Positions 3,552-64,000 of a stretch of 64,000 nucleotides of DNA are shown here, in pieces. Within the stretch, counting starts at the first letter, position 1. Each line of letters starts with the position of its first letter. Both the position numbers and the translations under genes were made by a program. The notes under the pieces were generated by a model. It was not told where the DNA came from. It made no database searches and saw only the letters and a list, made by a program, of their open reading frames with translations. Source of the stretch: an uncultured Planctomycetia bacterium (GTDB taxonomy: Bacteria > Omnitrophota > Gorgyraeia > 2-01-FULL-45-10 > JAHFGN01); assembly GCA_964354545.1 (NCBI GenBank), contig CAYHAE010000001.1, positions 364 through 64,363 on the forward strand, read 5' to 3'.

Positions 3552-3572
3552 AAAAAGAGCGAAAAGCGCAAT

Positions 3573-3685
3573 TTTTAGCGTATAGCGGTTAGTAAAATGG
3601 AGCTGACGGTAGAGTGATATACCAAGGTTTTTCACTATGCGCGCTATACGCTAAACGCTATACGCTGACCGCTAAACGCTCGATA
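3573..3685. repeat. Short copy of a terminal-inverted-repeat element. The arms TAGCGTATAGCGGTTAGTA and CTATACGCTAAACGCTATACGCT are separated by about 45 bp.
   Basis: The arms are reverse complements of each other. Near-identical arms flank a 440-bp insert at 61751-62194. Confidence 0.5.
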
Positions 3686-7899: not shown

Positions 7900-7970
7900 A
7901 CCCTTCGGCTCATCCCCGGATTTTAAGTAGGGATATTCGCTTAAGGGTTAACTGAGCGGCGCACACTTCT

Positions 7971-8003
7971 CCGTGCCCACGAAGGCACGGTTAGAAATTT
8001 TCG
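7971..8003 (+). terminator. Candidate terminator after ileS.
   Basis: Hairpin CCGTGCC-CACGAA-GGCACGG followed by a T-rich tract that is interrupted (TTAGAAATTTTCG). Confidence 0.45.
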
Positions 8004-8042
8004 AAGATAATTTCATGCGCCGTCGACGTATAAAGGAGGAAT

Positions 8043-8453
8043 ATGGGAAAGATGAAGAAGATAAAGAAGATGACCAAGCAGGAGATGAAGAAGTACAAGG
8101 AGATGCTCATCAAGGACAGAAGCAGGCTCAACGACGAGCTCTTCAATCTGAAGAAAAACAATATCGATAAATCGCAGCGCGATGCCTCCGGCGAGCTTTC
8201 GGGATACACCTACCACATGGCCGATATGGCGACCGACAATTACGATAGAGACTTTTCGATGGGGATCGCGACCGAGGAGCAGAAGAGGCTCTTCGCAATA
8301 GAGGAGGCCCTCAAACGCATAGAAGAAGGCACATATGGAAATTGCCTCGACTGCGGGAAGAAGATACTGAAGAAACGACTCGACGCAGTCCCCTGCACAG
8401 AGCTCTGCATTGAATGTCAGACGAGTCAAGAGAAGAAGAGACCCAAGAGGTAG
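8043..8453 (+). CDS. DksA/TraR-family C4 zinc-finger protein.
   Basis: Coiled-coil N-terminus and a C-terminal CLDCGKKI...CTELCIECQ four-cysteine zinc finger. A strong RBS (AAGGAGG) precedes it. Confidence 0.8.
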   Translation: MGKMKKIKKMTKQEMKKYKEMLIKDRSRLNDELFNLKKNNIDKSQRDASGELSGYTYHMADMATDNYDRDFSMGIATEEQKRLFAIEEALKRIEEGTYGNCLDCGKKILKKRLDAVPCTELCIECQTSQEKKRPKR

Positions 8454-14540: not shown

Positions 14541-16301
14541 ATGAGACAGGAGGCACTCACGCTTTTCATCACCATACTGTTCGTCTTTCTTCTGCTGGGC
14601 CTCATCTATGCTCAGGTGCTGAACCACGACGCCTACTACGCTCAATCGCAAAATAATTTCATAAGGATAGTTCCCATCGACGGCCCGCGCGGGAAGATCT
14701 TTGACAGGAACGGCCGCATCATGGTGAACAACAGGCTCTCCCTCGACGTATCGTGCATCTATCAGGAGATAGGCCGCAAGGACCTGTTCATCAAGACGCT
14801 GGGTACGGTGCTTGGTACATCGCCAAGAGGCGTCATTCGGTGTCTGGAAAAGGCGAGCGAAAGGCCCTTTGCCCCCGTGACGCTGCAGGAGGATGTCGAG
14901 AAGGAGCGGGCGATAAGCCTGGAGGAACTCGAACCGGGCGTGCGGGGAGCGGTGATCGAGCCGAAATCAAAGAGGGATTACGTCTACGGATCCGCAGCGG
15001 GGCACATATGCGGATACCTTGGGGAAGTAAATGAAGAAGAGCTCGACCGGCTCAGGGGCTACGGGTACAGGATGCGGGACCTCATAGGCAGGAGCGGCCT
15101 GGAGAAATATTACAATAATTATCTCACGGGTATCGACGGGGGCGAGCAGATAGAAGTAGACGCGAGGGGGAGGCGCGTGAGCCTCCTCGGCCTCAAGGAG
15201 CCAAAGGCGGGGAAAGACCTATGGCTTACCATCGATGCCCGGCTCCAGCAGCTCGCACAGAATCTCCTCGAAGGGAAGACGGGGGCGATCGTGCTGATGG
15301 ACCCGAGGAACGGCGAGGTCCTCGCGCTCGCGAGCAGTCCCGCCTACGATCCCAACACATTTGTGAGGCCGAGAGAATTTGCGGAGCGCATGAGGCTGGT
15401 TGAGGACAGGTCCAAGCCGTTCTTGAACAGGGCGATAGGCGGTGTCTACGCGCCGGGTTCGGTATTCAAGATAGTGACCGCATGCGGAGCGCTCGAAACG
15501 AAAAAGATCTCACGGTATACCCGTTTCACCTGCACAGGAACGTATAAGCTCGGCGGCACTACGTTTCACTGTTGGAAAGAGGGCGGCCATGGGCCCCAGG
15601 ACATCATTGACGCGATCAAAAATTCCTGCAATGTGTTTTTCTATACGGCCGGCAAGAGCCTTGGCGTTGACGCGCTGGAGTCGTACGCGCTGCGGTTCGG
15701 TTTCGGCAAACCAACGGGAATAGACCTGCCTGAGGAGGCCTCCGGCCTTGTCCCCGGCAGGCTGTGGAAGATGCTCGCCAAGAAAGAGGCATGGTACGAT
15801 GGGGAGACGGTCAACTTGGCAATAGGGCAGGGATATCTCATGGTGACGCCGCTCCAGGTGCTCAGGATGACGGCGTGCATCGCGAACGGCGGGAAACTCG
15901 TCCGCCCCTTCATGGTGAAACGCATCGGCCCTGTAGAGGTGGGCAGCTCGCGGCTTCAAGACCTTGGGTTGTCGGCCGAGACCGTAAGGATCATAAAAGA
16001 AGGGATGCTCAAGGTCGTGAACGACGATTCCGGCACGGGCAGGCGCGCGAAAGTGGACGGTCTCGTAATAGGAGGGAAGACGGGAACGGCCCAGAATCCC
16101 CAGGGCGTGCCCCATGCGTGGTTCATCGGGTTTGCCCCAGCGGAAAACCCTTCGTTATCGGTCGTGGTCATGGTCGAGCACGGAGGGAGGGGCGGGTATG
16201 AACCCGCGGAGATCGCCCACGATATATTCAAGGCTGCGCGCGAGATGGGCTATCTGCCCGCTTCAGGTAAGGCAGTATCGGACGTCGCATCGCAGAGGTA
16301 A
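14541..16301 (+). CDS. mrdA: Penicillin-binding protein 2 (peptidoglycan D,D-transpeptidase MrdA).
   Basis: N-terminal TM segment, the PBP dimerisation domain, and transpeptidase motifs SVFK, SCN and KTGTA. Confidence 0.9.
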   Translation: MRQEALTLFITILFVFLLLGLIYAQVLNHDAYYAQSQNNFIRIVPIDGPRGKIFDRNGRIMVNNRLSLDVSCIYQEIGRKDLFIKTLGTVLGTSPRGVIRCLEKASERPFAPVTLQEDVEKERAISLEELEPGVRGAVIEPKSKRDYVYGSAAGHICGYLGEVNEEELDRLRGYGYRMRDLIGRSGLEKYYNNYLTGIDGGEQIEVDARGRRVSLLGLKEPKAGKDLWLTIDARLQQLAQNLLEGKTGAIVLMDPRNGEVLALASSPAYDPNTFVRPREFAERMRLVEDRSKPFLNRAIGGVYAPGSVFKIVTACGALETKKISRYTRFTCTGTYKLGGTTFHCWKEGGHGPQDIIDAIKNSCNVFFYTAGKSLGVDALESYALRFGFGKPTGIDLPEEASGLVPGRLWKMLAKKEAWYDGETVNLAIGQGYLMVTPLQVLRMTACIANGGKLVRPFMVKRIGPVEVGSSRLQDLGLSAETVRIIKEGMLKVVNDDSGTGRRAKVDGLVIGGKTGTAQNPQGVPHAWFIGFAPAENPSLSVVVMVEHGGRGGYEPAEIAHDIFKAAREMGYLPASGKAVSDVASQR

Positions 16302-16813
16302 ATAACGAGGCTCCTATCCGCCTCATGTAAAGCTGTATCGGATGTCGCATCGAAAAGGTAAATAACAAGGCTCCTATCCGCCTCATGTAAAGCTGTATCG
16401 GATGTCGCATTGCGGAGGTAACGCGCGAGGCTCCAGTCCCGACACCAGTGGAAAGCGAAGCGATCCCCGAAATCTTTCAGATTTCAGGGGAGACGTCGCA
16501 TCTCCCTCGACTTCGCTCGGGATGGTTCGTCCCTCGATATAACTCGGGATCGAATCCTGAGCCTGTCGAAGGATTCGAGGGATGGTGAGCAAAGTCGAAC
16601 CAGCAGAGGCAAAGAGCGAGGCTCCTATCCGCCTCCGGCAAAGCTCCATCGGATGTCGCATAGCAGAGGTAAATAACAAGGCTCCTATCCGCCTCATGTA
16701 AAGCTGTATCGGATGTCGCATTGCGGAGGTAACGCGCGAGGCTCCTATCCCGACCCCAGAGGAGTGGCGAAGCGGGATGTCGCATCGCAGAGGCAAAGAG
16801 CGAGGCTCCTATG
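16262..16813. repeat. Tandem array of about five or six degenerate 60-bp units. It runs from the last codons of mrdA to the rodA start codon and is interrupted by a 170-bp structured insert.
   Basis: The unit GTAAATAACGAGGCTCCTATCCGCCTCATGTAAAGCTGTATCGGATGTCGCATCG[CA/AA]GAG appears adjacent at 16300 and 16360, and again at 16610-16800. The copies are all variants of the ancestral mrdA-stop/rodA-RBS junction. Confidence 0.8.
16437..16612. repeat. Hairpin-rich insert (element A) that carries the 27-nt core CCCGAAATCTTTCAGATTTCAGGGGAG.
   Basis: It interrupts one 60-bp unit. Compare the intact unit at 16720-16790. The core at about 16466-16492 is identical to 29608-29634. Confidence 0.5.
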
Positions 16814-17908: not shown

Positions 17909-18357
17909 TGCATAAGTTTTCAGCAACTCTACGGCGTTTACTTTTGTGGTCGCCTCCGCTTGCCGCTCGCTCGGATTCGGCATCCTCGCTCGCTGTGACT
18001 AAAATTTCGATGACTGAATCGCCATAAGGTATCGAAATTTTAGACAGTCGCTCCGGCGACGCACAAAAGTTCCGCCGCTGCGAGAAATGAAAGATACACG
18101 GGAGTGCATGCATGTAATAAAAGGGGCGCGATATTTATTCACCTATAATCACACGCTCAACGCGTAAAGCAGACGGGTGACCAAAAAACGATGCATCGCG
18201 TACAAAATTTTCGACCCATCTCTTGAAACAAATTTTGCACACTGCCCTATAGAGGCAGAGATCATTATCTTTACGTCGAACCCCGAGAGGGGAGATTGAG
18301 AGCGGCAGGACCCGAAAAATTTTTGTATCAGCACACGTCATATAGGTCAAAAAAGAG

Positions 18358-20193: not shown

Positions 20194-20494
20194 TTAGTGA
20201 ATGGTGAATAGTGAATAGGCCACCTTATCCGCCTTCGCAGAAGACCACGGATGTCAACCCGTGGATGAATGCGACCAGATGCTTCGGCGGTCGCCACCAA
20301 GGCTTCGGCGACCGTCCGCCGACGATTCAGTGGCGGACGGATGTCACACCTGACGTGCAGGCGGATACCCCCACCGCCTAGATTTACGAAGTAAATCTGG
20401 TGGGGGTAAAGAAAGGGACCACGGGCGTAAGCCCGTGGGGTTCCATTGGCCATATCGCAAAATTATTCACTAATAACCATTCACTATTCACTAA
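20194..20494. repeat. About 300-bp element with imperfect terminal inverted repeats (left TTAGTGAATGGTGAATAGTGAATAGGCCA, right TGGCCATATCGC...CCATTCACTATTCACTAA). The interior is a string of GC-rich hairpins.
   Basis: The ends are mutual reverse complements. Internal stems include CCACGG/CCGTGG, GTCGCC/GGCGAC, CGTCCGCC/GGCGGACG, CCCCCACC/GGTGGGGG and a GTAA tetraloop hairpin CACGGGC-GTAA-GCCCGTG. Confidence 0.5.
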
Positions 20495-20524
20495 TAATCA
20501 AGGATAGCCAAATTCCAAGCTTGT

Positions 20525-28648: not shown

Positions 28649-28984
28649 ATGGTCAGAAGACATAAAAAGGGATTCACGCTTGTTGAAATCATGATAGTCG
28701 TCGCAATTATAGGTCTATTGGCTGCCATCGCTATCCCGAACTTTGTGAGGGCGAGAGAGACGGCAGAAAGAAATGCGTGTATCGCAAACCTGAAGCAGAT
28801 ACAGGGTGCAGTTCAGGTGTGGGCGATCGACACGAGTGCGGGGTCCACTTCAACGCCAACCGCGACATCAGATCTCGCGAACTACATAAAGACATGGCCG
28901 AAGTGCAAAACAACTACGTATGCGATACCCGCAGTCAGTGCAAACCCCGCGTGTCCAACCACCGGCACTGGACACAACCTCTAA
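28649..28984 (+). CDS. Type IV pilin (prepilin N-terminal cleavage/methylation domain), copy 1.
   Basis: Class III signal MVRRHKKG|FTLVEIMIVVAIIGLLAAIAIP with a Cys pair in the C-terminal region. An RBS (AGGAGG) precedes it. Confidence 0.85.
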   Translation: MVRRHKKGFTLVEIMIVVAIIGLLAAIAIPNFVRARETAERNACIANLKQIQGAVQVWAIDTSAGSTSTPTATSDLANYIKTWPKCKTTTYAIPAVSANPACPTTGTGHNL

Positions 28985-29019
28985 TCTTAAGGGGTAATCC
29001 ATTTTTCGTGCGAGGTGCG

Positions 29020-29057
29020 AAAAGGACGGCTATCGTATTATTGCCGTCCTTTTTGCT
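29020..29057 (+). terminator. Rho-independent terminator after pilin copy 1.
   Basis: AAGGACGGC-loop-GCCGTCCTT followed by TTTTT. Confidence 0.6.
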
Positions 29058-29180
29058 TTGGGTATTTCGAAAATTATTTAATTATTATCAGAGCACAACA
29101 GCTGTAAATGAAAGGGGGTGAGGACCGGCCTAAAGACTTTTTTTATCGGACCCATTTTTGGGAAAAAGGAGGGATGAGAC

Positions 29181-29516
29181 ATGGTCAGAAGACATAAAAA
29201 GGGATTCACGCTTGTTGAAATCATGATAGTCGTCGCAATTATAGGTCTATTGGCTGCCATCGCTATCCCGAACTTTGTGAGGGCGAGAGAGACGGCAGAA
29301 AGAAATGCGTGTATCGCAAACCTGAAGCAGATACAGGGTGCAGTTCAGGTGTGGGCGATCGACACGAGTGCGGGGTCCACTTCAACGCCAACCGCGACAT
29401 CAGATCTCGCGAACTACATAAAGTCATGGCCGAAGTGCAAAACAACGACGTATGCGATACCCGCAGTCAGTGCAAACCCCACGTGTCCAACCACCGGCAC
29501 TGGACACAACCTTTAA
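29181..29516 (+). CDS. Type IV pilin, copy 2.
   Basis: The protein differs from copy 1 at 2 of 111 residues (T to S and A to T). The upstream leader and RBS are also duplicated. Confidence 0.85.
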   Translation: MVRRHKKGFTLVEIMIVVAIIGLLAAIAIPNFVRARETAERNACIANLKQIQGAVQVWAIDTSAGSTSTPTATSDLANYIKSWPKCKTTTYAIPAVSANPTCPTTGTGHNL

Positions 29517-29518
29517 TC

Positions 29519-29715
29519 CTGTTATCAGAGTTCCACGAGCTACGCCCGTGGGTTGCACCCGCGGACGTAGACCGCGGGTGCATGGCGGAGCGGTCCGGGA
29601 TTTAATTCCCGAAATCTTTCAGATTTCAGGGGAGCGGTTGCCGCACAAGGAGAGTATTCAGTGCGGGTACCGCGGGCTGCGTGCCAACGGCAGGCGTACC
29701 CGTGGGGCTCCAGGC
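29519..29715. mobile_element. Structured insert of about 197 bp (element B) in the 3' UTR of pilin copy 2. It carries the same 27-nt core as element A.
   Basis: Copy 1 reads TAATC|TTAAGGGG. Copy 2 reads TAATC[197 bp]TTAAGGGG. The insert is hairpin-dense (TGCACCCGCGG/CCGCGGGTGCA, CCACG/CGTGG, GCCGCAC/GTGCGG) and has the core at 29608-29634. Confidence 0.5.
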
Positions 29716-29749
29716 TTAAGGGGTAATCCATTTTTCGTGCGAGGTGCGG

Positions 29750-29790
29750 AAAGGACGGCTATCATATTATTGCCGCCCTTTTCTTTTTAG
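29750..29790 (+). terminator. Terminator after pilin copy 2 (slightly degraded duplicate of the copy-1 terminator).
   Basis: AAAGGACGGC-loop-GCCGCCCTTTTCTTTTT. Confidence 0.5.
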
Positions 29791-29905
29791 GACAGCGCGA
29801 TAAACGTTTTTCATAATGCAATCGTGATATCGGGGCCACGTATCTGTTGAAGAGTAAGGCGCTTTTTGACTTCACCCGATCCTAGGAGGGAAGGGGGGAT
29901 GAGAC

Positions 29906-30241
29906 ATGGTCAGAAGACATAAAAAGGGATTCACGCTTGTTGAAGTCATGATAGTCGTTGCAATCATAGGTCTATTGGCTGCCATCGCCATCCCCAACTT
30001 TGTAAGGGCGAGAGAGACGGCAGAAAAGAGCGCGTGTATATCAAACCTGAAGCAGATACAGGGTGCGGTCGAAATGTGGGTACTCGATACGAGCGCGGCA
30101 TCTTCGTCAACGGCGTCTGGAACATCAGACCTTGTGAATTACATAAAGGTATGGCCAAAGTGTAAGGCGAGCACATATGCGATACCTGCGGCAGACGGAA
30201 CGCCCGTGTGTCCGAACAGCATAGGCGGACACAACCTCTAA
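29906..30241 (+). CDS. Type IV pilin, divergent third paralog.
   Basis: Same N-terminal domain as copies 1 and 2. The variable C-terminal half is divergent but the Cys pair is conserved. Confidence 0.85.
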   Translation: MVRRHKKGFTLVEVMIVVAIIGLLAAIAIPNFVRARETAEKSACISNLKQIQGAVEMWVLDTSAASSSTASGTSDLVNYIKVWPKCKASTYAIPAADGTPVCPNSIGGHNL

Positions 30242-41420: not shown

Positions 41421-41452
41421 TTCCGCCGGAGGCGGATCCGCCTTCGGCGGAA
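41421..41452. repeat. Perfect 32-bp palindrome TTCCGCCGGAGGCGGATCCGCCTTCGGCGGAA (REP-like). Copy 1 of 2.
   Basis: Self-complementary. A second copy is at 53810-53841. Both are followed by AAAGTGCAA. Confidence 0.7.
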
Positions 41453-41668
41453 AAGTGCAAAGCGTCCGCTACTAAATCATCAGCGGACGCCCGCCAAAGT
41501 TCGCTACTAATGCTTCAGCGAACCCGCTGATGCATTAATGGCGGGCTTTGTGGCGGGCGAAAAACGAAAAACTGTGGTGTCCCTCCGGGACCTAAATGTA
41601 AAGGTCGCGGGAGCGACTCCACCGTTTTGCGTTTTGCGCTTTTAGTTTTTCGCTGGTATGCGCATATC

Positions 41669-42238: not shown

Positions 42239-42359
42239 CTACGTCTTTCGGATATGCTATAATTACGTCACTACATCAGAATACAAACGGAGCGAAGGAG
42301 CGAAAGGCTATCGATGGCCATATGCCCGCATTAACAAAATACGCAAGGAGGTGAGTTGA

Positions 42360-42503
42360 ATGGCAGAGACAGGGTATTGTGTGAAGTGTAAGTCGAAGAA
42401 AGAGATGAAAGACACATCAAAGGTTACGATGAAGAATAAGCGAGAGGCGATGAAAGGCAAGTGCGTAACGTGCGGCACCGGAATGTTCAGGATAATGAAG
42501 TAA
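42360..42503 (+). CDS. DUF5679-type 47-aa zinc-ribbon mini-protein. It is absent from the ORF track because it is shorter than 60 aa.
   Basis: MAETGYCVKCKSKKEMKDTSKVTMKNKREAMKGKCVTCGTGMFRIMK. Two CxxC pairs. RBS AGGAGGTGAG, 8 nt upstream of the ATG. Confidence 0.6.
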   Translation: MAETGYCVKCKSKKEMKDTSKVTMKNKREAMKGKCVTCGTGMFRIMK

Positions 42504-42578
42504 AGGTAGTGCGCATTCTTTGGACGAAGGCGCACCGCCGATAAGAGGTGAGAGCCTATAGAAACCAGCGAAAAACTT

Positions 42579-42965
42579 TTGGCAATAGCCAAAGCCGCCT
42601 CGGAGAAGAAGGCCGTCGATATTGCCATCATAGATATGAGAAAGATGTCCTCGCTCGGAGATTATTTTCTCATCGCGAGCGGGGCATCTGCACCTCAGGT
42701 CAGGGCGATATGCGAAAATATCATTGAGAAGCTGAAGGGTCTCGGCATCAGGCCGTGGCATGTTGAGGGAGATCTAAGAAAACCAACATGGATAGTGCTC
42801 GATTATGGTGATGCGGTAGTCCATATATTTCACGAGGAGACTCGTACGTTTTATAACTTAGAACGCCTTTGGGGAGATGCGCCTCAAAGGCGTTTTAAGC
42901 CTCGGGCGAAGAAGAAGGGCTCGGATGCGAGAAAAAAAGGTTCCGCGCGAAAGGCACGCGCGTAG
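42579..42965 (+). CDS. rsfS: Ribosome silencing factor RsfS (Iojap family).
   Basis: AVDIAIIDMRKMSSLGDYFLIASGASAPQVRAI...DYGDAVVHIF. TTG start in the track. The start is uncertain. The basic C-terminal tail overlaps the next gene. Confidence 0.8.
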   Translation: MAIAKAASEKKAVDIAIIDMRKMSSLGDYFLIASGASAPQVRAICENIIEKLKGLGIRPWHVEGDLRKPTWIVLDYGDAVVHIFHEETRTFYNLERLWGDAPQRRFKPRAKKKGSDARKKGSARKARA

Positions 42966-48847: not shown

Positions 48848-48854
48848 GTGACTG

Positions 48855-49835
48855 GTGAGGTGTAAGGGTATGGTTCGAAGGCACAGCACATGGTGCATGG
48901 CCGCTCTTTTCGGCGTCCTTATGATGGGCGCGGGGACAGGAGCCGCCGAGGTGGTCGATAAGGTCGTCGTTGTCGTGAACGATGAGGTGATCACGCTCTC
49001 AGAGGTCGACCAAAGGCTCGGCCCTCTATACCAGGAGTATCAGAACATTTACAGAGGCGCGGACCTCGCGAAGAAGGTGGAAGAGGCGCGGCAGAAGGTC
49101 ATCGATGAGCTCATCGACCAGAAGCTTCTCCTGGGAGCCGCGAAGAAGGAGGCCATAGAGGTGAAGGATAAGGAGGTCGAAGAGCGGCTCGAGGAGCTGA
49201 GGAAGAAATTCGGCTCGCGGGAGGATTTGGAGAGGGCGCTGATACGCGAGAATACCACGGTAGGGGAGATAAGGAAGAGGCTTAAAGAACAGATCGCGGT
49301 GAAAAAATTTATAAATAATAGGATCATCTCGAAAATAACAGTCTCCCCTGTTGAAGTGCGCGATTACTATGAGGCGCACCGCCATGAGTTCGGGGAACCG
49401 GAGAAGGTCAAGATGAGGGATATCCTCATCAAGATAAAGGACGGGGGAGGGTCAAACGAAAACCCTGCCGTGCTTGCCGCAGAGGTCGCGAGGAGGTTGA
49501 GAGAGGGGGGCGACTTCGCGGGGCTGGCGAAGGCCTACTCCGAAGGGCCCGGCGCGGATGAAGGCGGCTCTATGGGGTATGTGAAGAAAGGCGACCTGAA
49601 GAAAGAGATAGAGGATGTCGTCTTTGCGCTGAAGCCGGGAGAGTGTTCGAATGTCATCCGGACAGATCTGGGCTGCTACATATTTAAAGTCGAGGAAAAG
49701 GTCCCCGCCAGGGTACGGGAGCTCTCCGAGGTTCGCGTTGATATCGAAAACTTTTTGTTCAACAACAAGGCGGGAAGAAGCCTCAGAGAGGTTGCGAAAG
49801 ACCTCAGGAAGAATGCGTACATCGAGTTCAAATGA
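48855..49835 (+). CDS. surA: SurA-like periplasmic chaperone/PPIase.
   Basis: Signal peptide, SurA N-terminal domain and a parvulin domain (MRDILIK...GGSMGYVKKGDL). It is followed by pdxA and rsmA as in the E. coli surA-pdxA-ksgA operon. Confidence 0.75.
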   Translation: MRCKGMVRRHSTWCMAALFGVLMMGAGTGAAEVVDKVVVVVNDEVITLSEVDQRLGPLYQEYQNIYRGADLAKKVEEARQKVIDELIDQKLLLGAAKKEAIEVKDKEVEERLEELRKKFGSREDLERALIRENTTVGEIRKRLKEQIAVKKFINNRIISKITVSPVEVRDYYEAHRHEFGEPEKVKMRDILIKIKDGGGSNENPAVLAAEVARRLREGGDFAGLAKAYSEGPGADEGGSMGYVKKGDLKKEIEDVVFALKPGECSNVIRTDLGCYIFKVEEKVPARVRELSEVRVDIENFLFNNKAGRSLREVAKDLRKNAYIEFK

Positions 49836-51853: not shown

Positions 51854-51931
51854 TTTATACCGTTTGAGAATCGCATCGGCAACGTGTTCCCGAGTTGAGA
51901 TCCCACCTGCTCCCAACGACCGCACTACGCC

Positions 51932-51966
51932 ATACGCAATACGCGATACGCAATACGCAATACGAA
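51932..51966. repeat. Five tandem heptamers ATACGCA / ATACGCG / ATACGAA.
   Basis: Direct reading. It lies in the rsmA-gatC spacer. The motif resembles the CGCTATACGC repeat arms seen elsewhere in the window. Confidence 0.6.
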
Positions 51967-53809: not shown

Positions 53810-53841
53810 TTCCGCCGAAGGCGGATCCGCCTTCGGCGGAA
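53810..53841. repeat. Second copy of the REP-like palindrome TTCCGCCGAAGGCGGATCCGCCTTCGGCGGAA.
   Basis: Matches 41421-41452 at 31 of 32 positions. Confidence 0.7.
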
Positions 53842-53879
53842 AAGTGCAATGTGTAAAGTGTAAGATGTGATCAGATACC

Positions 53880-57766: not shown

Positions 57767-57971
57767 TGGCGGTAATGTATGCAGCATGCGCAGATGACCA
57801 CAGACTTCACGTGCATCGGCATATTCACTGATGATCACAGATGCCGCGGATCAGTGATGATCAGTGAACCCGTGAGTCTTTCATGCGATCCGTGATCATC
57901 TGCGGAAGATCAACGGTGTGCGCGATTTCGCATGAGCCGAGTTTAAAAAATGTCTGTTATAAAGGCCTAAC

Positions 57972-60421: not shown

Positions 60422-60423
60422 GA

Positions 60424-60524
60424 GGTTACATAAGGTTCCATCAGGTTACATAACGTTACATAAGGTTACGAAAGTGGGCAACCTTATGGAACATGAGGGA
60501 ACCTTACGTAACATTATGGAACGT
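60424..60524. promoter_or_regulatory. Periodic array of 13-bp sites with core GTTACATAAGGTT: three direct copies and two or three inverted copies at 10- and 20-bp spacing.
   Basis: Direct sites start at 60424, 60444 and 60454. Inverted sites AACCTTATGGAAC and AACCTTACGTAAC start at 60480 and 60500, with one more at 60514. The array fills the spacer between the two HTH_17 genes. Confidence 0.6.
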
Positions 60525-61750: not shown

Positions 61751-61755
<5 letters not shown>

Positions 61756-62194
61756 CGTATAGCGGCTAGTACACTAACATCGCTTATAATATCCATAGTC
61801 CACAGACCACAGACAATAGACCATAGACTGTGAAACGCGGACCATATGCTAAACACCAAAATATCCAGTCACGCATCAGTTTTACGTGTTGAGTGTGTGG
61901 TACGATGAAGGGGTGGACGGATCCAGGGCATAAAAGCGCCCGGGGCCCCCGAGGGGCGGCATTGAGCGGGACGTAAAAATCGCGAGCGGGCACGGATCCC
62001 GAGCCCGCTAAAAGATGTATGCGAGGGAGAGCGAGCGATTTTTCTCGAGTGCAATTTTCCTCGCCGGGGAAAATTGCACGTTCCCGCGAAATGACGACCC
62101 GAGAGGGGGCAAGAGCTTGCAATGAAGGAGGTGGGTGGCATGCTGTATAGGATGCTCAATCCTATACGCTAAACGCTATCCGCTATACGCTATT
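61751..62194. repeat. About 440-bp element flanked by TAGCGTATAGCGGCTAGTA and CTATACGCTAAACGCTATCCGCTATACGCT. It is the long version of the 3573-3685 element.
   Basis: The arms are nearly identical to those at 3573 and 3650. The interior holds a 12-bp-stem hairpin GTGCAATTTTCC/GGAAAATTGCAC. It separates larB from larC. Confidence 0.5.
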
Positions 62195-63367: not shown

Positions 63368-63483
63368 TAAATGACGGTCATTGTGAGGGGTCCCGAAGTT
63401 TCGGACGCGACGAAGCGATCTATCCGCAGCAGCGCTTTAGATTAAGATTGAGATTAAGATTGAGAAATACACGAAGCAGGGGA

Positions 63484-64000
63484 TGAACCTAGAGATGACA
63501 CCAGCCTTACGCAAGACATTTCGCCCGTCGGTCTATGGTCTATGGTCTTTAGTCTTTAGTCTTGCGTCGCTAGTCGTTGGTCTATGGTCCATAGTCTTTA
63601 GTCTTTTTCTGGCCTTCGGTCTCTCCACCGCACGCGCCGACACCGTCATAAAGCGAGACGGCCGCGAGCTGAAGGGGATCATCGTCGAGGATTACTACGA
63701 CAGGATCGTCCTCTCAACGCCTGACGGCGAGGTCCAGGTCCTGAAGTCCGATGTTCGGGAATTATCGTACGACTCTGAAGAAGACAATCTGATAAAACTC
63801 GGAGACCTCGCAAAAGAGAGGAGCAATTACGAAGCCGCCTACTCATACTATGAAAAAGCATTCAACATGAATCCCAATTCGAAACCCGCAAAAGACGGAA
63901 TGATGTACCTCAAGGGGTTCCTCTTCCGAAAAGAAGAGGCGAAGAAGGAAGAGGACATTAAGCGCCGCACAGAGTTCGAACGATACCAGGTTGCCGGGAT
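63484..64000 (+). CDS. 5' part of a secreted or membrane protein (hydrophobic leader, then a possible TPR-like region). It runs off the window end.
   Basis: ATG at 63484. The leader LWSLVFSLASLVVGLWSIVFSLFLAFGLSTARA precedes a soluble region. The frame is still open at 64000. Confidence 0.45.

Follow-up and report, generated by a model that had tools for sequence, protein, structure and literature searches.

Tandem heptamer repeats have been noted for decades in cyanobacteria, Xanthomonas, Beggiatoaceae and Geobacter, and neither their mechanism nor their function is settled. This analysis concerns a 444-bp non-coding block with heptamer arms that lies between larB and larC in a stretch of 64,000 nt from an uncultured Omnitrophota bacterium (contig CAYHAE010000001.1; the whole 64-kb stretch is called the window). 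Several described systems bear on it. In Geobacter metallireducens, Aklujkar et al. (2009; PMC2700814) describe paired sites (classes 1-3, Gmet_I features) with 3-5 tandem 7-9-mers per site, the members of a pair lying on opposite strands at variable distance. They give dozens of sites per genome, mostly intergenic and with one pair between proB and proA, find them absent from the sister species, and read them as binding sites for a global regulator or for IHF-HU (PMC2700814).

Cyanobacteria carry the short tandemly repeated repetitive (STRR) heptamers and the Nostoc heptamer repeats, which occur in large numbers, chiefly between genes and in many cases next to start codons. They come in several unit types, some form inverted pairs that can fold into stems, and their function and origin are unsettled. 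The STRR are also present inside a helix of the cyanobacterial RNase P RNA. Nostoc heptamer repeats affect the expression of recF and recO (bioRxiv 10.1101/2022.06.06.494920), and heptamers are reported as over-represented among bacterial simple sequence repeats (PMC4692102). The marine Beggiatoaceae carry TAACTGA direct repeats (MacGregor 2015; PMC4679880), which are intergenic, occur in 2-6 copies and often lie a few nucleotides from start codons. These repeats are patchy across phyla, suggesting horizontal spread without a visible vehicle (PMC4679880). A search of one literature library found no paper connecting Omnitrophota with heptamer repeats; the one paper there that matches Omnitrophota and tandem repeats concerns Methanoperedens elements and, judging by title and abstract, looks unrelated.

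The reading favored here, with moderate confidence, takes the 444-bp block to be a non-coding, palindromic repeat of compound structure with tandem-heptamer stems, one of several "heptamer-armed hairpin" families in the co-directional housekeeping operon spacers of this Omnitrophota lineage. The elements are probably selfish or neutral. The block fills the larB-larC spacer of 439 nt. The larB stop codon (TAG, 61753-61755) is the first triplet of the left arm, and the right arm ends 2 nt before the larC ATG (62195), so that it does abut the larC start as the initial annotation held. Its parts are as follows.

61753-61771, + strand: left arm, TAGCGTA TAGCGGC TAGTA, 2.7 heptamers
61772-62161, + strand: interior, 390 nt, non-coding and unique among all sequences compared
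62127-62172, + strand: AGGAGG Shine-Dalgarno sequence (62127-62132) and upstream open reading frame (ORF), with ATG 7 nt later at 62140 and TAA at 62170
62162-62194, + strand: right arm, CTATACG CTAAACG CTATCCG CTATACG CTATT, 4.6 heptamers

Both arms are tandem heptamers (period 7 in TRF) of the form (TAGCGNN)n-TAGT on the left and ACTA-(NNCGCTA)n on the right. They form a 19-nt inverted repeat that is 95% complementary, AATAGCGTATAGCGGCTAG at 61751-61769 and CTATCCGCTATACGCTATT at 62176-62194, with a separation of 406 nt. Its left half is made of the left-arm heptamers plus two A bases 5' of the TAG. The interior holds a further, ATAGACC-type heptamer array at 61792-61828 and unrelated GC-rich hairpins at 61985-62009 and 62049-62079. 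A local hairpin at 62144-62168, GTATAGGAT/ATCCTATAC, gives the right arm a 9-bp partner of its own. With a second array, unrelated GC hairpins and this short partner, the block looks compound rather than like a single unit. The predicted fold of the interior is well below that of shuffled sequence (z = -7.7). The interior shows no BLAST similarity to any fetched sequence, the arms alone matching, its ORFs have no Pfam domain, and it has no Rfam match at E<=5. Window positions 61797-61828, within the interior array, are 81% complementary to an array at 63521-63606 in a PDZ gene on the far side of larC.

A second copy of the element lies between proC and yggT.

3557-3594, + strand: left arm, degenerate AGCGAAA AGCGCAA units, then TAGCGTA TAGCGGT TAGTA
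3642-3683, + strand: right arm, CGCTATA CGCTAAA CGCTATA CGCTGAC CGCTAAA CGCT

The TAGCG arms proper span 3576-3594 and 3642-3683 and enclose 47 nt; the predicted fold has z = -3.4. The initial annotation described two copies with near-identical arms around unrelated interiors of different length, and this holds: BLAST finds no similarity between the 47-nt and 390-nt interiors and matches only the arms. The gene names it gave also hold, as LarB and LarC both pass NCBIfam equivalog models and ProC and YggT are confirmed by Pfam. The 13-mer TAGCGTATAGCGG, allowing up to two mismatches, has 11 matches in the window against 1.26 expected, and all but two of them fall in these two loci. Arm lengths are unequal (19 versus 33-42 nt). 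In the proC-yggT spacer, GAGCGAAAAGCGCAA (3557-3571) is retained 5' of the TAGCG 19-mer and appears to be left over from an arm of the 41553-41660 type (below), which suggests that an older element may have been replaced or converted to the TAGCG spelling. Coding capacity was considered for the elements and rejected, as the internal ORFs, on the minus strand, have low G+C at third codon positions and no Pfam domain. The arms thus recur in a repeated, inverted-repeat family without coding capacity, as first proposed.

Comparison with relatives shows that the block arose in this lineage. All LarC and ProC homologues with a source name come from Candidatus Omnitrophota, and a relative with 63% LarC identity has its genes from gatC through the PDZ gene in the same order. 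Six relatives with 63-74% LarC identity were compared at larB-larC, and the element is absent from all six although larB-larC is conserved. Among fetched sequences (designated by L numbers) and one further contig, the spacer without the element measures 7 nt (P0008 contig), 8 nt (L001), 5 nt (L010), 16 nt (L025) and 53 nt (L009). The spacer in L009 (74% LarC identity) is free of heptamers, and that in L024 (also 74%) is at least 113 nt long with a different repeat of ~32 nt. Set against spacers of 5-53 nt, the 439 nt found here mark the block as lineage-specific, and the possibility that the arms belong to a conserved larB-larC spacer falls away. A search of the insert for remnants of the ancestral spacer gave a single borderline match to L009 (14/16, window 62037-62052).

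Other spacers follow the same pattern. In L028, proC and yggT lie 3 nt apart, and its ftsA-yggS spacer measures 79 nt versus 234 nt in the window. The spacer holding an element at 60423-60522 is 6 nt in L001 (between genes 1403-1945 and 1952-2347), and the spacers with 10-mer hairpins, at 60423-60522 and 57790-57905, are 1-6 nt in relatives. Several further spacers between gatC and the PDZ gene are longer than in the relative with 63% LarC identity. Contigs of the same or related populations break at repeat-filled spacers, with L026 ending 4 nt past the proC stop and L027 and L024 ending inside spacers. These breaks are consistent with multicopy sequence disrupting short-read assembly.

The arm is found in other genomes and metagenomes, which answers the concern that it might be confined to this DNA. 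The exact 19-mer TAGCGTATAGCGGYTAGTA has seven matches in GTDB contigs (one genome per species) and 13 in metagenome contigs. Four of the seven genome matches are in different Omnitrophota (37-43% G+C), and the remaining three come from genomes that bear the labels Acidobacteriaceae, Saccharibacteria and Pirellulales; such labels may be wrong for metagenome-assembled genomes. The 19-mer is absent from IMG/VR, giving no indication there of phage carriage. A search with the right-arm 18-mer returned one real array (in L029) and one chance coding match.

Nearly all 19-mer matches have more TAGCGNN units on the 5' side, forming arrays of 2.7-11.7 units in which the 19-mer is always the array end. 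Among 20 distinct arm-bearing loci, 6 have a clear inverted partner, 1-3 are marginal, and the rest, about two thirds, are solitary direct arrays. Wherever there is a partner, it lies 10-404 nt away on the TAGTA side and never on the opposite side. Right arms read as the reverse complement likewise end in ...TAGCGNN TAGT. The inner end (...TAGCGGTTAGTA / TAGT) is therefore conserved on both arms and the outer ends are ragged, with variable units, so that the conserved landmark is the end closest to the hairpin apex; the loci from other genomes were fetched with the exact 19-mer, which biases what appears conserved. The arrays are nearly always intergenic, often touch an ORF boundary, and show no orientation bias relative to neighboring genes. 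In L011, two TAGCG-type arrays (516-546 and 1384-1425) lie in frame within an O-antigen-ligase/TPR gene, and arrays are evidently tolerated in coding sequence there.

A sister family provides evidence of dispersal. In L027, whose ProC is 82% identical, AGCGTAAAACTAAAAGCGAAAAGCGTAAAACGGTGGAGTCGCTTATACGACC lies 3' of proC and is ~90% identical over 43 nt (E = 2.6e-11) to the reverse complement of window 41553-41660, with both the arm and the interior hairpin covered. The same family thus sits at different loci in two genomes, indicating that the elements disperse. In L029, a putative viral contig, CGCTATA, CGAGATA and TAGTGAA arrays stand side by side, which points to a repertoire of unit spellings common to several genomes. 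The remaining elements and arrays in the window are as follows.

1822-1916, + strand: AAATCCG / CGGATTT element, arms flanking the TCCGCCaaaGGCGGA hairpin in the ftsA-yggS spacer; fold z = -4.6
20195-20495, + strand: TAGTGAA / TTCACTA element, arms of 23 nt that are 91% complementary, 246-nt interior of GC-rich hairpins; fold z = -10.6
41553-41660, + strand: sister element in the proA-nadD spacer, arms CGAAAAA x 2 and (CGTTTTG)n with a conserved GC hairpin between, inverted arrays spanning 41558-41655; fold z = -5.0
51921-51964, + strand: solitary array (CGCAATA) x 6.3 in the rsmA/ksgA-gatC spacer, no inverted partner
53841-53863: solitary array
60423-60522, + strand: 10-mer element, inverted arrays of (AGGTTACATA)n and its complement
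63521-63606, + strand: GGTCTAT / AGTCTTT array within the PDZ gene 3' of larC, where it encodes the core of the signal peptide

The window contains 10 period-7 arrays versus ~0.2 in shuffles, an enrichment of ~50x, and other periods among 4-15 give 0-2 arrays. Period 7 dominates likewise in the loci fetched from other genomes. Unit identity within arrays is 74-88% (TRF), at least seven unit spellings occur in the 64 kb, and the array in the PDZ signal peptide is the sole one outside a spacer. Inverted tandem arrays are formed by five heptamer pairs and a single 10-mer pair, whose arms are 10-406 nt apart. The elements are predicted to fold more stably than shuffles, by 3.4 to 10.6 standard deviations. 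A variant unit in one arm has its mirror image in register in the other, as with TGGTGAA at 20195-20495 (91%), TAGCGG(C/A) at larB-larC (95%) and 22 of 25 positions in L004, indicating that the arms are true inverted copies rather than two independent arrays. A TCCGCC-loop-GGCGGA motif recurs in the interiors (6 matches versus 0.31 expected).

Single hairpins of that motif occur at 1849-1863, at 20315-20337 and in L009 at 2414-2428, inside or adjoining heptamer hairpins. A double palindrome, TTCCGCCGRAGGCGGATCCGCCTTCGGCGGAA then AAAGTGCAA, is present in two copies that are 97% identical (41421-41452 and 53810-53841). Another 10-mer hairpin with inverted arrays, GATCAGTGAT-like, lies at 57790-57905; with the one at 60423-60522, it indicates that the tandem-array hairpin design is not limited to period 7. 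The array at 51921-51964 has no predicted structure (z = +1.3) and matches the L029 array at 82%. The initial annotation suggested that an ATACGCA tandem at 51932 may be related debris. The array itself is real, and its CGCAATA unit is one base different from the arm unit CGCTATA. Stop codons in all three frames were considered as the purpose of the arrays and the idea was rejected: it is true of TAGCGTA TAGCGGT TAG and untrue of the AAATCCG, CGAAAAA and CGCAATA arrays.

The PDZ protein ORF starts at 63483, and its array encodes the hydrophobic signal-peptide core (…VYGLWSLVFSLASLVVGLWSIVFSLFLAFGLSTARA, followed by DTV…). Other heptamer spellings are found at the same position of the gene in L009 (1305-1377), L001 (4311-4357) and L010 (2233-2267), and no array is found there in L024 and L025.

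Four other explanations need to be weighed. The one that survives best, itself unlikely, holds that the arrays are protein-binding heptads on DNA, forming operator-, centromere- or nucleoid-type sites. This would account for an AGCG core that is kept as three positions per unit vary, both between the window and L027 at the same locus and across genomes of very different G+C. It also fits the lack of orientation bias relative to transcription and the occurrence of arrays both solitary and paired, as with omega operators. The Geobacter paired sites are so interpreted (PMC2700814), and the Nostoc repeats change promoter output (bioRxiv 10.1101/2022.06.06.494920). However, at least six unrelated spellings in 64 kb would require many proteins, and no candidate protein was found. 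Arrays also occur in coding sequence (L011 and the PDZ signal peptide), and the mid-operon spacers that carry them are essentially lacking in relatives, leaving no evident conserved regulatory need.

Next in order, and improbable, is purely local growth, in which slippage with a 7-nt bias occurs in place, inverted duplication follows, and similarity between loci is convergent. The over-representation of heptamers among bacterial simple sequence repeats has been ascribed to slippage (PMC4692102), and units here are locus-specific. Differently spelled arrays at one PDZ-gene position in four relatives, and proC-yggT arrays of the window and L027 that align as orthologues, are also what local growth would produce. 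It does not readily explain identical 19-mers, unit order and the TAGT inner end at non-orthologous loci in different species, nor the 90% identity of arm and interior between window 41553-41660 and another locus in L027. In addition, arrays with 74-88% unit identity are imperfect, and hence are not recent slippage products.

Third, and improbable as well, is the interpretation preferred in the initial annotation, which saw the classic signature of a miniature inverted-repeat transposable element (MITE). The block would then be a transposon deletion derivative moved in trans, with the heptamers as multiple transposase-binding sites. Inverted arms speak for this, the 19-nt terminal repeats being well matched though the arms are unequal and made of tandem heptamers. 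Presence and absence at orthologous sites do so too, with empty sites at larB-larC in five relatives and at proC-yggT in L028. One arm sequence occurs at unrelated loci and in other genomes, a sister family lies at different loci in related genomes, and short-read contigs of relatives break at the spacers, as for multicopy DNA.

The details do not bear out a MITE. At six elements, the best flanking direct repeat is 2-3 bp, no better than at random position pairs, in a comparison where a TA duplication is indistinguishable since TA belongs to the repeat unit. The outer termini are not sharply defined but vary in unit number and sequence, and the inner end is conserved, the reverse of transposon terminal repeats. 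Most arrays are solitary, and the two copies are wholly different inside and 4-fold different in length. An arm-anchored search of 2 kb at the 20 loci found no inverted partner beyond 404 nt, so there is no gene-sized unit between the arms at these loci. No transposase-bearing parent was found in the window or beside the arrays in L011 and L022, where the ORFs between and beside the arrays are housekeeping genes by Pfam. None of the ~58 genes in the window, all housekeeping, has a transposase, integrase or Y1 domain. No sizeable ORF of the window has a transposase, LarA or LarE domain, in line with the initial remark that larE and larA are lacking from it.

Finally, it is very improbable that the block serves larC as a cis-regulatory element or as a separate RNA (for instance a leader that senses nickel or nucleotides, or a small RNA gene), with the closing stem as insulation: the predicted structure is very stable, it lies directly 5' of larC, and it has a strong Shine-Dalgarno sequence and a 10-codon upstream ORF ending in the right arm, but it is missing in every relative examined despite conserved larB-larC, it has no Rfam family even at E<=5, no promoter-like site inside and no homologue of the interior in any fetched sequence, and the same arms flank an unrelated 47-nt interior at proC-yggT. 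At gathering thresholds, no Rfam family is found in the whole window, and tRNA and tmRNA genes are absent from it as well. The two largest elements have no Rfam family even at E<=5.

The favored reading, that of palindromic repeats with heptamer stems, suggests how such elements may arise. A conserved function finds no support, as the larB-larC element is absent from all relatives examined, has no Rfam match and shows no strand asymmetry, and a selfish or neutral palindromic repeat is the most economical reading. As selfish or neutral miniature repeats, they would persist since spacers tolerate them. Arrays would grow and shrink in 7-nt steps via replication slippage, and the likeness of the arms would be maintained by hairpin-templated repair or by selection for pairing. 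Copies might spread, or be homogenised between loci, by some trans-acting activity or by gene conversion. Later hairpin modules nested in the loop could then have produced the 390-nt interior.

The consequences for larC can also be outlined. No promoter-like site and no + strand terminator are predicted inside the insert, so it is probably part of the larB-larC transcript, co-transcription being the most likely arrangement given these predictions. The suggestion in the initial annotation that the element supplies larC expression signals finds no support, as nothing indicates a promoter within it. Spacers of 5-8 nt in relatives fit translational coupling, and with the 439 nt found here, the coupling of larB and larC would be lost. 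The RNA of the spacer could fold shut as a single long stem, the larC start lying 2 nt from its foot, and tight translational coupling would be replaced by a structured, possibly processed, intercistronic region. The larC start has no recognisable Shine-Dalgarno sequence of its own. The upstream ORF (MLYRMLNPIR, 10 codons) stops within the right arm, 22 nt 5' of the larC start. It might be speculated that AGGAGG and this ORF could open the stem and bring ribosomes near larC. A structured RNA of 439 nt in place of tight coupling could alter the LarB:LarC ratio.

Several observations weigh against this account of the elements. Folding energies differ little between the sense and antisense strands (5 to 2 favoring sense), and there is no strand bias relative to genes; a role at the RNA level is therefore not demonstrated. 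Slippage alone does not easily account for identical 19-mers across genomes of 37-64% G+C; these point to a sequence-specific agent, and none was found. The proC-yggT array seems orthologous to the differently spelled L027 array, so that this copy more likely evolved in place or by conversion than by a new insertion. The TAGCG copies number two, a count that, like those of the other families, covers the 64 kb of the source genome in the window. 

A bolder proposal, which is unlikely, is that the element class represents miniature mobile DNA in which arrays of 7-nt units, with TAGT at the hairpin apex, serve as the recognition module for a putative heptad-binding recombinase or nuclease widespread in Omnitrophota and neighboring uncultured lineages. 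If true, this would offer a mechanistic handle on heptamer repeats (STRR, TAACTGA and the Geobacter sites) that have been unexplained since 1990. The locus offers a natural comparison, with operons with and without elements in relatives, one arm across very different base composition, and a sister element at different loci. This makes mobility, slippage and binding sites directly testable against one another. For annotation, it matters that such hairpins enlarge operon spacers, disrupt assemblies from short reads and can end up in protein, the PDZ signal peptide being an example.

Other repeats occur in the window. Two blocks of 60-nt tandem repeats at 16232-16812 (2.7 and 3.5 units; a 38-nt core occurs seven times) take up the 509-nt spacer that separates rodA from the gene for the PBP2 transpeptidase, with no known-domain ORF and no Rfam match. 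Four more housekeeping-gene spacers of 450-800 nt (7900-8413, 17909-18357, 42239-42876 and 48848-49650) likewise lack Rfam matches, and none of the ORFs tested in them bears a domain. Positions 8041-8115 contain AAG/GAT-rich repeats of 9 and 18 nt, and an exact 27-nt repeat (16466-16492 and 29608-29634) is common to two otherwise unrelated spacers. Three tandem paralogues of a 111-aa type IV pilin with the N-terminal methylation motif lie at 28649-30241, 3' of pilus ATPase and platform genes. Over 300 nt, two of the three copies are 100% identical, which points to a recent duplication or conversion event.

The heptamer hairpins can now be set beside known systems. They share with MITEs the inverted ends, lack of coding capacity, presence and absence among relatives and multiple copies, and differ in having no target-site duplication beyond chance, ragged outer and conserved inner ends, common solitary arms and no parent transposon found. 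The omega repressor of plasmid pSM19035 binds contiguous 7-bp units in direct and inverted arrays, with one ribbon-helix-helix dimer per heptad. The contiguous heptads in direct and inverted arrays are alike, but the omega operators, with their single unit sequence, belong to the promoters and partition sites of a plasmid; neither a protein of this kind nor such a promoter setting was seen here. Bertels and Rainey are said to have shown in 2011 that REP and REPIN elements are mobilised by RAYTs. A REP half is an imperfect palindrome whose length is fixed, the size of a REPIN is likewise defined, and every family goes with a RAYT gene that has REPs of that family on both sides. Here, too, there are short non-coding intergenic palindromic repeats with two inverted halves that form a long hairpin, in several families, with clustering and nesting and a place in operon spacers just past stops. 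The units, in contrast, are tandem heptamers rather than REP palindromes, and no RAYT (Y1 transposase) gene is present in the 64-kb window.

The TAACTGA repeats resemble the present arrays in being intergenic heptamers near starts with patchy spread. They differ in being nearly all direct (one indirect repeat among 170 sets) and in having one dominant unit (PMC4679880). The STRR come closer, as the window likewise has head-to-tail heptamers enriched over other periods, mainly intergenic and in several unit families. Their units (CCCCAGT, TTGGTCA, GGGGAYT and TTTTGAA) are different, they belong to another phylum, and they are rarely described as arms of inserts hundreds of nucleotides long. As in Geobacter metallireducens, pairs of tandem-unit arrays lie on opposite strands at variable distance, with several unit families per genome, a likeness of architecture and not of homology. 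The Geobacter units (GTTGCTYN, TCTCCGTS and MTYCTGA) are not shared by TAGCGNN, TAGTGAA, AAATCCG or CGAAAAA, the phylum is another one, and the accessible part of that report describes neither nested GC hairpins nor interiors of hundreds of nucleotides. The best reading, by analogy, is that the heptamer hairpin would be a variant of the known but mechanistically unexplained heptamer repeats rather than a member of the MITEs or REPINs, and that it stands closest to the STRR and to the Geobacter metallireducens paired sites.

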